DNA of 64,000 bases from Escherichia phage EC.P1: sequence record PQ657772.1. One strand, written 5' to 3'. The notes below the pieces were generated by a model. That model ran no database searches and was not told the DNA's origin. It saw nothing but the letters and a program-made list of their open reading frames with translations. Position 1 is the stretch's first letter. The number at the start of each line of letters is the position of its first letter. The translations under genes and the position numbers were made by a program. This document shows, in pieces, positions 21,715-23,644 of the stretch.

Positions 21715-22017
21715 TTACATGCTCGGTTCGTATTCAACATAACATCTTGAACCACGAGCCTTTTCCTCCCAGCATTCTTGGTAAACTAGTTGACCAATTG
21801 ATACTGGATCTCTTGATAACCCATTACGAACTTCACCAGTACTGGTTTTATAAGTAAATGAGCATTTATTTTCATTACATTGACCTAATCCTATTACAGT
21901 CGCTGTATTGTAATGAATATTATAACGTTTAGTGTTCTCATGATATGAACTGAACCACAGAACACCTATACCTAATAGCGTTGTGCAAATAAGACTCTTG
22001 ATATGTGTTGAAATCAT
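21715..22017 (-). CDS. small membrane protein
   Basis: 100 aa; N-terminal TM (LICTTLLGIGVLWF), Cys-rich ectodomain. Confidence 0.45.
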   Translation of the reverse strand: MISTHIKSLICTTLLGIGVLWFSSYHENTKRYNIHYNTATVIGLGQCNENKCSFTYKTSTGEVRNGLSRDPVSIGQLVYQECWEEKARGSRCYVEYEPSM

Positions 22018-22334
22018 AGTGCATTAAATCCATTAGTTAAGTAAGTTTCAATATTAACTTTCCCTACTGGATTACTACTATGTACATAGTATTTAAATGG
22101 TTCTTTAATATTATGCTCAAACATATAATCAATTAGAAATTTGGCAAAAGTGTATCCAGTTTTCTCATCTGTACTCAAGTCACCCAAGTCATGGTCAAAT
22201 GAGACAAATGCTGGAATTCCATTTTTGATTACGTATTCACATGCACTTTCGTAGTCACGACACAATACCATCTCTTGGTCAGGATAATATTTTTGATAAT
22301 CACGAATATCATCCAAGAACATTGAGTACGACAT
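22014..22334 (-). CDS. receiver (REC)-fold-like small protein
   Basis: 106 aa; FLDDIRD ... SFDHDLGD ... VHSSNPVGK resembles the Asp-Asp / Asp / Ser-Thr / Lys layout of receiver domains; ATGA-coupled to neighbours. Confidence 0.4.
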   Translation of the reverse strand: MSYSMFLDDIRDYQKYYPDQEMVLCRDYESACEYVIKNGIPAFVSFDHDLGDLSTDEKTGYTFAKFLIDYMFEHNIKEPFKYYVHSSNPVGKVNIETYLTNGFNAL

Positions 22335-22343
22335 TTTAAACTC

Positions 22344-22895
22344 CTATAGATAGCTGATTAGTAAGTTTTCTTTTTGTACAAGATACTCTAATTCTTGTTT
22401 CGCAGTTCCGATGAAGTTCTGTGTCATAAGATTATTATATCCTGCTTCTCGATTTTGTCCCTTCGAATAACGAGAGATGTGACATAAATTTACACCAGCC
22501 ACCTCTGCACTAGCATGTTTGCCATATGCATAATTATCACGAAGTTTTTTAAGTTCAGCATAAGTCATTTCATAACTATAGCTATGTGAGTGACCCTCTG
22601 GAAACAATTCAAGTGATTTTAATGGAGACAGGCGACTTTTGTCAATGATATAGTTCATTTCTTCTTGAACTTCACGTTGTAACGCATCTTCTAATGACTT
22701 ATCAGTACTTTCAACTGTTCCACCACATGCACCCAACAATCCATCCCAACGCACTTGTAGGAGTACTAAGTTAACCACTGGAATATCATTTAGTTCATAA
22801 CCAGAGTATGGGGTACATTCTTTTGCATAAAAGAAACAGAATACAAAATTTGCACGTTTCCCCAGTTGTCCCAGTGGTACTTCAGCTTTACTCAT
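22344..22895 (-). CDS. Nudix hydrolase
   Basis: 183 aa; Nudix box GGTVESTDKSLEDALQREVQEE (GG.vE ... REvqEE); start overlaps Sir2 stop (ATGA). Confidence 0.7.
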   Translation of the reverse strand: MSKAEVPLGQLGKRANFVFCFFYAKECTPYSGYELNDIPVVNLVLLQVRWDGLLGACGGTVESTDKSLEDALQREVQEEMNYIIDKSRLSPLKSLELFPEGHSHSYSYEMTYAELKKLRDNYAYGKHASAEVAGVNLCHISRYSKGQNREAGYNNLMTQNFIGTAKQELEYLVQKENLLISYL

Positions 22896-23644
22896 CGCAT
22901 TCGTTCCTTAATTATAGTTTCAACCTGTGGAATTGCTTTCGTCGCAGGTTTGATGACCTTCTCATTAAAAAGAAAATCATTATCATTTTTTCGGATGTTA
23001 ACATTTACACTATAGCATGGAAGTGCACCAGCTAGTCTGGACCATACCAGTACTGTATCACTACTTCCAATAACTACAACTGTATCATTTTCTGTGAGAC
23101 TTTTCAACACTTCATTTCGTTCTTCATAAATGGGGAGACGTACCCCATCAACGTAGCGATGATACTCACCAATCATCACTACATTTGGTTTTGCAAAAAC
23201 ATCAGCTTTAGGGATATATGGTTCATAACCACAATTAATGACATTGTAATCATCGGTATTAATAGAAAAGTTCTCAATTACTTCACATAAATTGCCGTGT
23301 AGTTTGAGTTCGGTTCCACCAATTCTAGTATATAGATCATCCATATTAGAAGTCATGTGTAAAAAACAATCACCATACAAATCTTCTAATGATTTAATAA
23401 AGTAATGCATTTCATTAGGATGACATTCACCTAATTTTACACGCAATGTATTATAAAATGAATGAACTACATGATACTTAGAACTAAGTCGTGCAATGTT
23501 ACAAACATCATTAATTTTGAAATTGTCCCACAACCCATCATCAAAGCGGAATGGTTCCATCCCGCTCTCAACTGAAAGACCTGCCCCTGAAATTATAAGT
23601 AATCTTTTGTTCCCAGCATTTTGTATAAATTTATCTGATATCAC
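22892..23644 (-). CDS. Sir2-family (sirtuin-like) NAD-dependent protein
   Basis: 250 aa; ISGAGLSVESGMEPFR (GAGIS.ESGIP.FR), TSNMDDL (TQNID.L), LHGNL (catalytic His), VVVIGSSDTV. GTG start with AGGAG RBS. Confidence 0.75.
   Translation of the reverse strand: MISDKFIQNAGNKRLLIISGAGLSVESGMEPFRFDDGLWDNFKINDVCNIARLSSKYHVVHSFYNTLRVKLGECHPNEMHYFIKSLEDLYGDCFLHMTSNMDDLYTRIGGTELKLHGNLCEVIENFSINTDDYNVINCGYEPYIPKADVFAKPNVVMIGEYHRYVDGVRLPIYEERNEVLKSLTENDTVVVIGSSDTVLVWSRLAGALPCYSVNVNIRKNDNDFLFNEKVIKPATKAIPQVETIIKERMR

Follow-up and report, generated by a model that had tools for sequence, protein, structure and literature searches.

A gene neighbourhood encoding a sirtuin, a 2H protein, a Nudix protein, a cREC protein and a PIN endoRNase has already been described in phages, with Serratia phage BF (sirtuin AQW88637.1) as its prototype (Iyer, Burroughs, Anantharaman and Aravind 2022, PMC9503650, section 3.7.3). 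The sirtuins concerned were proposed to form a distinct viral clade acting like KptA/Tpt1, by taking 2'-phosphates off cleaved RNA, with the associated enzymes opening a cyclic phosphate or processing the by-product ADPr>P (ADPr, ADP-ribose; PMC9503650). We analyzed a stretch of 64,000 nucleotides (nt) from Escherichia phage EC.P1 (PQ657772.1; hereafter referred to as the window), in which three consecutive genes encode a sirtuin (Sir2), a Nudix protein and a cREC protein (hereafter referred to as the cassette), followed by genes for a predicted membrane protein and a PIN-PhoH protein. The cassette is the Rak2-like jumbo-phage version of the published “viral sirtuin” neighbourhood, and is already known as a computational prediction. 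To the earlier account (PMC9503650) we add the NUDT16-like nature of the Nudix protein, a zinc-less class III sirtuin with a predicted altered acyl-lysine tunnel, and the finding that genes for the salvage of nicotinamide adenine dinucleotide (NAD+) are as frequent neighbours of the sirtuin as RNA-repair genes, yet are missing from the lineage of the window. From gene content and conserved residues, we tentatively read the cassette as a NAD+-consuming unit that may process damaged RNA ends, a reading to which we give somewhat less than an even chance.

Escherichia phages Ecwhy_1 and fEgEco12 share 99.7% identity with the window, and the figure for the PBECO4/121Q group is about 79.5%. These identities indicate that the source of the window is a Rak2-like jumbo myovirus of the PBECO4/Ecwhy_1 type, a coliphage with a genome of roughly 350 kb. 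The sirtuin, Nudix, cREC and PIN proteins are found in the same order as in the type-1 viral sirtuin neighbourhood of phage BF described by Iyer et al., with orthologues displaying 44–69% identity, but the window lacks the 2H/Acb1-like gene and the upstream NatV and NadV genes, and its Nudix and cREC proteins are not fused. The published account is also silent on the 100-amino acid (aa) membrane protein encoded in this region and on the likeness to NUDT16/X29 (“nudt16” occurs 0 times in PMC9503650). In GenBank, the three genes of the cassette are labelled Sir2-like, NUDIX hydrolase and hypothetical.

The initial annotation of the window had recognized three open reading frames (ORFs) as Sir2, Nudix and receiver-like. 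All three were found on the minus strand at the positions given there (Table 1), with the quoted Sir2 and Nudix motifs in their translations, and the domain calls proved correct (Pfam SIR2, Nudt16-like/NUDIX and cREC_REC), with matches far beyond chance. The Sir2 stop codon overlaps the Nudix start codon in an ATGA (..cgATGAgt.. in the DNA), a 9-nt spacer separates the Nudix and cREC genes, with GGAG ahead of the cREC ATG, a second ATGA overlap couples the cREC gene to that of the 100-aa membrane protein, and 61 nt separate the latter from the 479-aa PIN-PhoH ORF. The translational coupling of Sir2 and Nudix noted previously is real as an overlap, but is unremarkable for this genome: of the 77 gene junctions in the orthologous fEgEco12 region, 16 have 4-nt overlaps and 31 have overlaps of any kind, so the coupling of these two genes alone says little. 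A scan of positions 19500..27000 identified no terminator-like site from Sir2 to PIN-PhoH, the sole strong one being located at 19855..19834, and the 45 promoter-like sites in this interval were barely above the number in shuffled sequences (33 ± 6.5).

The cassette is conserved across Rak2-like jumbo phages. Sir2, Nudix and cREC came in this order in 42/42 phage records with listed coordinates, Sir2 always preceding Nudix on one strand. The gap between these two genes was ≤60 nt in 37 records, 387 nt in the case of four Munch-like phages and 1.6 kb in one problematic partial genome; that between Nudix and cREC was 12–25 nt in 21/21 records. Phages RaK2 and BF have the same five-gene order, membrane protein and PIN-PhoH included, and Nudix and cREC form one polypeptide in BF and in the metagenomic protein P0163. 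Sir2 was detected in 69 phage records (E≤1e-40) and Nudix in 74, 70 of which correspond to Rak2-like jumbo phages, and the genus counts were nearly identical. The cassette proteins have diverged among relatives to 44–58% identity. The flank upstream of Sir2 differs by lineage while the cassette stays constant: in the window, this flank contains HslV- and ClpP-like peptidases, whereas RaK2 has NatV, an HNH endonuclease and then NadV there, and BF and Munch have NatV and NadV together with a 2H protein of the Acb1 family.

Two departures from this arrangement were observed. In the Munch-like phages (Munch, PHA46, SE_PL and fENko-Kae01), an additional ORF of 122 aa, for which Pfam gave no match, lies between Sir2 and Nudix (the Munch copy at 5747-6115 of locus L019). 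In Escherichia phage WPEC3 (locus L018, PV611058.1 292800-297200), a record labelled as a partial genome, a longer “Sir2” coding sequence is parted from Nudix by 1.6 kb of short ORFs annotated as PhoH-like, portal and NUDIX fragments; this interruption is probably an assembly or rearrangement artefact.

The 250-aa protein matched Pfam SIR2 (1.3e-19, 71 bits for a cut-off of 24) and phrog_2162 (7.9e-74), and its translation contains the sirtuin motifs GAGLSVESG..PFR, TSNMDDL, LHGNL and VVVIGSS. Thirty homologues were recovered, many from contigs of 100–355 kb, and an alignment of 22 sequences revealed that G20, G22, S27, N100, D102, D103 and H116 were invariant. As judged from these residues, the protein is a member of the SIR2 superfamily with intact NAD+-site and catalytic His motifs. 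No conserved Cys was found among the jumbo-phage sirtuins of this alignment, indicating that the four-cysteine zinc ribbon is absent and bearing out the earlier remark that a CxxC zinc module is lacking. The distant homologue P0029 retains CxxC...CxxC. The AlphaFold2 model (predicted local distance difference test, pLDDT, 90.7) had E. coli CobB as its best PDB fold match (template modelling score, TM, 0.76/0.84; 27–28% identity), followed by Sir2Af and SIRT5, and CobB was also matched by phmmer (2e-21). In the alignment with CobB, the succinyl-binding R95 of the YxxR motif is replaced by Leu67 (the Tyr being kept as Y64 and the Arg lost), F190 of the FGE motif by I158 and P221 by V199; the Pro equivalent to P221 is missing from all 22 homologues. 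F190 and P221 are strictly conserved residues of the acetyl-lysine tunnel (PMC5107563). The phage sirtuin thus resembles CobB and SIRT5 in its Rossmann core, GAGxS and TxNxD motifs and catalytic His-Gly, but differs from them in having no zinc-binding cysteines, in the L67/I158/V199 substitutions and in an 8-residue beta-hairpin inserted after the (F/I)GE motif. Sequence and model together indicate that it is a zinc-less derivative of the class III (CobB/SIRT5-like) sirtuins, with a predicted altered acyl-lysine tunnel. Two other identities were considered and rejected. A SirTM-like identity is at odds with the closest folds, which are class III deacylases, and with the absence of a Macro-domain partner next to the sirtuin gene, the neighbours of which encode a 63-aa ORF, the HslV-like peptidase, Nudix, cREC, the membrane protein and PIN-PhoH. 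Likewise, identity with a defence-type NADase (ThsA, DSR, SIR2-HerA or pAgo-associated) was rejected, because no defence-type Sir2 was matched among the PADLOC families (E≤0.01) or was present among the top PDB fold matches.

The 183-aa protein matched the Pfam Nudt16-like family (PF22327; 1.4e-18, 67.8 bits for a cut-off of 27) over profile positions 4-161 of 161, and also NUDIX (2.4e-7), and the Nudix box GGTVE..REVQEE is present. Its residues 28-179 align with residues 29-181 of human NUDT16 (9e-12, phmmer), and Xenopus X29 was also matched. R74, E75, E78, E79, H104 and E131 were invariant across the phage homologues and NUDT16, and an extended Nudix box, GGxV[DE]xxDxSLExxLxRExxEE, is common to the phage protein and NUDT16. 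NUDT16 and X29, which act in RNA decapping, in the hydrolysis of inosine diphosphate (IDP) and on the ADP-ribose of proteins and RNA, therefore resemble the phage protein in near full-length homology, in the Nudix box and in the acidic ligand E131. They differ from it in that identity is about 31% and the phage family is narrow, with 11 clusters at 90% identity in a collection of 5.8 billion proteins and 222 representatives at E≤1e-3 among 1.84 billion. On these grounds, the 183-aa protein is a NUDT16/X29-like Nudix and a predicted pyrophosphatase. NUDT16 trims protein-linked ADP-ribose to phosphoribose, and strips the ADP-ribose that the Tpt1 homologue TRPT1 adds to RNA 5'-phosphates (PMC6582358). 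Elsewhere, the Nudt16-like domain is fused to cREC, Ham1/ITPase or HD domains; the fusions to Ham1/ITPase or HD_4 in the metagenomic proteins P0238, P0218 and P0269 suggest that other branches of this family act in nucleotide house-cleaning.

The 106-aa protein matched Pfam cREC_REC (PF20274, cyclic-phosphate processing receiver domain; 1.9e-23). In total, 212 homologues were recovered, mostly stand-alone proteins of about 120 aa, with D8, D9, R11, R26, D47, H48, D49, H85, S86, N88 and P89 invariant. A receiver-like pocket, DD..D..S..K, had been proposed previously; D8, D9, D47/D49 and S86 correspond to its invariant part, but no conserved Lys follows S86 in the alignment. The predicted fold has four strands and four helices, the beta5 element bearing the receiver Lys being missing, and a PDB sequence search yielded no match. 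A role as a signalling or canonical two-component receiver, as in the initial annotation, was rejected on the basis of this lack of a conserved Lys and of a (beta-alpha)5 fold. The profile, the receiver-like fold, the acidic site formed by DD and D(H)D and the lack of a histidine-kinase partner place the protein in cREC, a predicted phosphoesterase family with RNA ligases and polynucleotide kinases as recurrent neighbours. The family was defined as a predicted metal-independent cyclic phosphodiesterase, with the processing of cyclic ADP-ribose (cADPr) allowed as a role (Iyer et al. 2021, PMC7824862). It has been termed “experimentally uncharacterized”, and up to 18% of jumbo phages carry it (PMC9503650).

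The neighbours of the sirtuin were surveyed in the 10-kb flanks of 59 IMG/VR sirtuin loci, and about a dozen isolates were also examined. NadV was found at 19 of the 59 loci, PhoH at 18, metallophosphoesterase at 15, cREC at 12 (more at a weaker threshold), a kinase at 12 (within 2.5 kb), Rnl1 at 11 (within 3.1 kb), NatV at 10, Nudt16-like at seven (solid matches), Acb1-like 2H at six and HAD_SAK_2 at five (within about 1 kb). Weak Nudt16-profile matches near distant sirtuins (L042, L043 and L041), with E-values of ~1e-4 like those of generic Nudix proteins, were left uncounted. Rnl1, cREC (9e-14) and Sir2 are consecutive in the rV5-like phage isim, beside a tRNA cluster and two phosphoesterases, and a metagenomic rV5-like contig has the order metallophosphoesterase-Rnl1-kinase-HNH-Sir2, with a PnuC-like transporter nearby. 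In the T5-like phage slur09, Sir2 lies close to a HAD_SAK_2 “Swiss-army-knife” RNA-repair phosphatase. Where there is no sirtuin, cREC was found immediately ahead of the gene for an Rnl2-type ligase, with Rnl1 and a PNK-like kinase nearby, and in Aeromonas phage AS-zj it lies near a CCA-adding enzyme and RlaP. Acinetobacter phage vB_AciJM_313 (L010, 1211-6315) encodes ribose-phosphate pyrophosphokinase (Prs), NadV, two unknown proteins, cREC and a polynucleotide kinase; its cREC gene is thus placed between genes for NAD+ and phosphoribosyl pyrophosphate (PRPP) supply and one for an RNA-end kinase. No recognizable families were found near the cREC genes of Ralstonia phage RSP15 and metagenomic P0118, or near the Sir2 genes of P0029 and Vibrio phage VH7D.

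RNA-end processing, which the initial annotation had not considered, is the best-supported context for the cassette. We favour it because no other reading covers the sirtuin, cREC and the RNA-ligase, kinase and phosphatase genes that recur near them in three phage groups unrelated to one another; this model is also in keeping with the altered acyl-lysine site of the sirtuin. The window also encodes Pnkp and Rnl1 (Table 1), which, from their domain matches, amount to a full T4-style pair for tRNA healing and sealing, and would be distant partners of the cassette, outside the cassette proper. According to this model, cREC would act as a metal-independent receiver-fold phosphoesterase opening cyclic phosphates, and Pnkp and Rnl1 would carry out 5' phosphorylation and sealing before the sirtuin step; alternatively, the sirtuin might act directly on terminal phosphates. 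The sirtuin would attack NAD+ with the RNA phosphate, as Tpt1/KptA does, its chemistry paralleling, by analogy, the two-step mechanism of Tpt1. The NUDT16-like Nudix and cREC would then dismantle the sirtuin by-product, giving AMP and a phosphoribosyl product, or might remove ADP-ribose or NAD-type adducts from RNA ends. A more specific version, in which the sirtuin would be a genuine 2'-phosphotransferase of RNA, or else an ADP-ribosyltransferase (ART) acting on terminal RNA phosphates, and would form with a cREC cyclic phosphodiesterase a yeast-type NAD+-dependent healing route alongside the T4-type Pnkp/Rnl1, appears unlikely to hold in full. In this version, re-entry of the phosphoribosyl product into PRPP and NadV salvage would explain why NadV and NatV flank the cassette in most relatives.

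The proposed logic is that of the Tpt1/KptA, 2H and Macro proteins, which clean up after tRNA splicing in fungi and plants, but the folds differ: the phage would use a sirtuin in place of the ART, cREC in place of 2H and Nudix in place of Macro, with the phage activities predicted. A KptA-Nudix fusion is present in Bodo saltans virus (PMC9503650). As for the T4 Pnkp-Rnl1 pathway, homologues of both enzymes are encoded in the window and the sirtuin and cREC genes of rV5-like phages adjoin Rnl1, but the T4 pathway needs no NAD+, whereas the cassette would add yeast-type chemistry or extend repair to other types of ends. Confirmation of RNA-end processing would provide the first example of a sirtuin acting on the phosphates of nucleic acids and a first biochemical function for cREC, and would give phages a NAD+-dependent branch of RNA repair with which to counter anticodon nucleases and other RNases of the host. 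The biochemistry of the cassette lends itself to direct testing, and proof that a sirtuin acts on RNA phosphates would be notable. Sirtuins of this clade are encoded by about 970 sequenced phages, among them T5-like, rV5-like and Rak2-like phages that serve in therapy work, and the hosts of sirtuin-carrying phages often have defences that drain NAD+, which makes the cassette of practical interest for therapy phages.

Several points weigh against RNA-end processing. The closest relatives of the sirtuin by sequence and fold are genuine protein deacylases, and we know of no sirtuin for which the nucleophile is a phosphate. As no 2'-phosphate is left by a T4-type Pnkp/Rnl1 pathway, it is unproven that a Tpt1 analogue is needed, and E. 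coli has its own KptA. The Pnkp and Rnl1 genes are 15–18 kb from the cassette, rather than adjacent to it, and a tRNA scan of the window identified zero tRNAs, giving no local tRNA link. The conserved gene order within the Rak2-like phages may partly reflect general synteny. The identification of the BF and Munch “2H” as Acb1 and the position of NadV as the most frequent neighbour of phage sirtuins also fit a role in counter-defence. Finally, our literature search found no experimental work on phage sirtuins, cREC, phage Nudt16-like proteins or this cassette.

The class III affinities of the sirtuin raise the possibility of a CobB-like lysine deacylase remodelling host or phage acylation (for example by activating acetyl-CoA synthetase, a role put forward for the sirtuins of Vibrio phages), with Nudix and cREC clearing O-acyl-ADP-ribose. 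Nudix enzymes hydrolyse O-acetyl-ADP-ribose, the catalytic His and NAD+ motifs are intact, CobB, Sir2Af and SIRT5 are the best fold and sequence matches, and every NCBIfam match is a deacylase model. In addition, zinc-less sirtuins were previously noted in KVP40-like phages, with a peak of expression about 20 min post infection and a proposed deacetylase role (PMC5107563). However, the NCBIfam matches are sub-threshold and far under every deacylase equivalog cut-off (89 bits, versus a CobB cut-off of 318), and the loss of the zinc ribbon, which helps to form the peptide cleft, of the YxxR Arg and of two acetyl-lysine tunnel residues (R95 to Leu, F190 to Ile, and P221 without a counterpart in any of the 22 homologues) speaks against a deacylase of the standard kind. 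Deacylation would also leave the recurrence of cREC and the sirtuin near RNA ligases, kinases and RNA-repair phosphatases unexplained, and we consider it unlikely to be the function of the cassette.

The genes for NAD+ salvage point in another direction. The “2H” gene directly upstream of Sir2 in BF (gp110; L002 6504-6950) and Munch (gp141; L019 4534-4980) scored against Pfam Acb1, an anti-CBASS family (CBASS, cyclic oligonucleotide-based antiphage signalling system), with E-values of 3.6e-15 and 1.7e-16, and a 2H gene lies beside Sir2 in BF, Munch and 6/8 Rak2-like IMG/VR loci. Given the proximity of this Acb1-like gene to NatV/NadV of the NARP2 type, the cassette of BF and Munch looks set in an anti-defence island. 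The NARP2-type enzymes (NadV and the NMNAT-Nudix protein NatV; defined in PMC13464706) adjoin the cassette upstream in RaK2, BF, Munch and other Rak2-like phages, and the nicotinamide released by the sirtuin would be a substrate of NadV. NadV accompanies the sirtuin in Rak2-like, rV5-like and other clades, an association that fits a high-flux NAD+ consumer with nicotinamide recycling. NARP2 is, however, missing from the window and its lineage: tblastn searches (with the BF 2H protein as a query, for example) identified no NadV, NatV or 2H homologues in the window, and RaK2-like NadV was found in 41 phage records, only one of them from an Escherichia phage (EJP2). As judged by these searches, the PBECO4/Ecwhy_1 lineage lacks the NadV carried just upstream by other Rak2-like phages. 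The rebuilding of NAD+ suggested in the initial annotation thus finds no support: these salvage genes are absent from the window, the cassette encodes no NAD+-synthesizing enzyme and its sirtuin consumes NAD+.

This setting is consistent with the possibility that the cassette serves counter-defence or NAD+ economy, with the Nudt16-like and cREC proteins degrading ADP-ribose (ADPR), ADPR-1''-phosphate and cyclic ADPR isomers generated by host NADase/TIR systems and the pieces feeding salvage. NatV and NadV immediately precede the cassette in most Rak2-like phages, with the Acb1-family 2H also there, NadV lies within 10 kb of about a third of the viral sirtuin loci, in several clades, and cREC is found beside Prs and NadV in the Acinetobacter phage. 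A dedicated phosphatase enables phages to process the ADPR-1''-phosphate generated by defence systems (bioRxiv 10.64898/2026.01.28.702374), and cADPr processing is among the roles allowed for cREC, as indicated above. Nevertheless, a NAD+-consuming sirtuin would be left without a role, and the lineage of the window keeps Sir2-Nudix-cREC even though it has no NadV, NatV or 2H. Moreover, the enzymes known for these tasks are neither cREC nor Nudix proteins, the phage ADPR-1''-phosphate phosphatase being a Macro domain and the enzyme that degrades cADPR a RyR-domain glycosidase, and no PADLOC or anti-defence family was matched (E≤0.01). We therefore assign a low probability to this possibility.

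ADP-ribosylation of host targets, suggested in the initial annotation, would make the cassette a host-takeover system, in which the sirtuin modifies host proteins or nucleic acids like SirTM or T4 Alt/Mod, and the NUDT16-like protein trims the mark to phosphoribose or reverses it. Some sirtuins are ADP-ribosyltransferases (PMC9503650), NUDT16 does convert protein- and RNA-linked ADP-ribose into phosphoribose (PMC6582358), and the altered tunnel residues would be compatible with such an activity. We found nothing in favour of this suggestion for the sirtuin itself, which is closest to CobB/SIRT5 rather than SirTM-like, has no Macro partner in its neighbourhood and no defence-type match; the gene context suggests no target and the RNA-repair neighbours would be unexplained, making host takeover quite improbable. 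Inherited synteny without any joint function, with Nudix as a house-cleaning (d)IDP/(d)ITP-type pyrophosphatase or general RNA decapping enzyme, would be in keeping with the frequent 4-nt overlaps (16/77), the synteny of the entire region among Rak2-like phages and the Ham1/ITPase and HD fusions, but is very improbable given the Nudix-cREC fusion, the recurrence of cREC-sirtuin adjacency in unrelated rV5-like phages, the intact cassette downstream of a swapped flank and the nearly identical distribution of Sir2 (69 records) and Nudt16-like (74) across the same genera. The general heading of a “NAD+/ADP-ribose system” under which the cassette had been placed nevertheless stands: the neighbourhood is filed alike in PMC9503650, the 250-aa protein falls within the Sir2 fold, the Nudix protein is NUDT16-like, and the linkage, with its conserved order and BF fusion, is maintained among related phages.

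Table 1. Genes of the cassette and other features of the 64,000-nt window; Pfam values for Pnkp and Rnl1 were obtained with the fEgEco12 orthologues, the ORFs being present in the window.
Feature	Position	Strand	Size	Remarks
Sirtuin gene	23644..22892	minus	250 aa	GTG start; AAGGAG 5 nt upstream
NUDT16/X29-like Nudix gene	22895..22344	minus	183 aa	start overlaps Sir2 stop
cREC gene	22334..22014	minus	106 aa	predicted phosphoesterase
Predicted membrane protein gene	22017..21715	minus	100 aa	phrog_14661, 1.6e-39
PIN-PhoH (PhoH2-type) gene	21653..20214	minus	479 aa	predicted RNA helicase/endoRNase; PIN_4 and PhoH
HslV-like peptidase	23877..24539	minus		phrog_1040; slot upstream of Sir2
ClpP-like protease	24820..25428	minus		phrog_26024; Pfam CLP_protease below cut-off; slot upstream of Sir2
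T4-type Pnkp	38409..39341	minus		HAD_PNKP 5.8e-43; AAA_33 1.1e-12
Rnl1-type RNA ligase	40164..41306	minus		RNA_lig_T4_1 6.3e-14; T4_Rnl1_C 1.7e-16
DUF4326 protein	11468..11794	minus		PF14216, 2.9e-24
WGR protein	17069..18040	minus	323 aa	WGR at the C-terminus only (residues 256-322, 1.3e-10)
“NMNAT-like” protein	49015..49548	minus	177 aa	HxGH-type motif; FAD_syn 0.002 and CTP_transf_like 0.0074, both sub-threshold
Dam-family DNA adenine methyltransferase	49545..50069	minus		2.3e-32

Downstream of the cassette, the 100-aa protein is labelled as a membrane protein by PHROGs, the assignments of which otherwise agree with those of Pfam, and has no Pfam match; orthologues with 45–46% identity are encoded at the equivalent position in Serratia phage BF and RaK2, and it was found at 7/7 full Rak2-like IMG/VR loci. 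The 479-aa protein matched Pfam PIN_4 (4.5e-20) and PhoH (8.6e-45), and the NCBIfam model “RNA 5'-3' helicase PhoH2” with a score under the cut-off (1.8e-45); its orthologue in BF, encoded at the corresponding position, displays 69% identity to it. A weak PTH2-like hydrolase was detected near Pnkp and Rnl1, in the Pfam analysis of fEgEco12 orthologues. The DUF4326 gene lies between anaerobic ribonucleotide reductase-like and activase-like genes; this family has been predicted to process the terminal ribose phosphates of ADP-ribose breakdown products (Iyer et al. 2022, PMC9503650).

Two further genes of the window had been pointed out in the initial annotation. The WGR protein was recovered as described, its 255 N-terminal residues matching no Pfam family. 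The NMNAT-like assignment, for a gene 26 kb away, could not be upheld, as the protein yielded only the two sub-threshold matches listed in Table 1. For the run of 140–195-aa ORFs at ~45.6–64 kb, an all-against-all BLASTP comparison gave no pair at E≤1e-5, and a paralogue family was rejected. The Dam-family methyltransferase gene overlaps that of the 177-aa protein.

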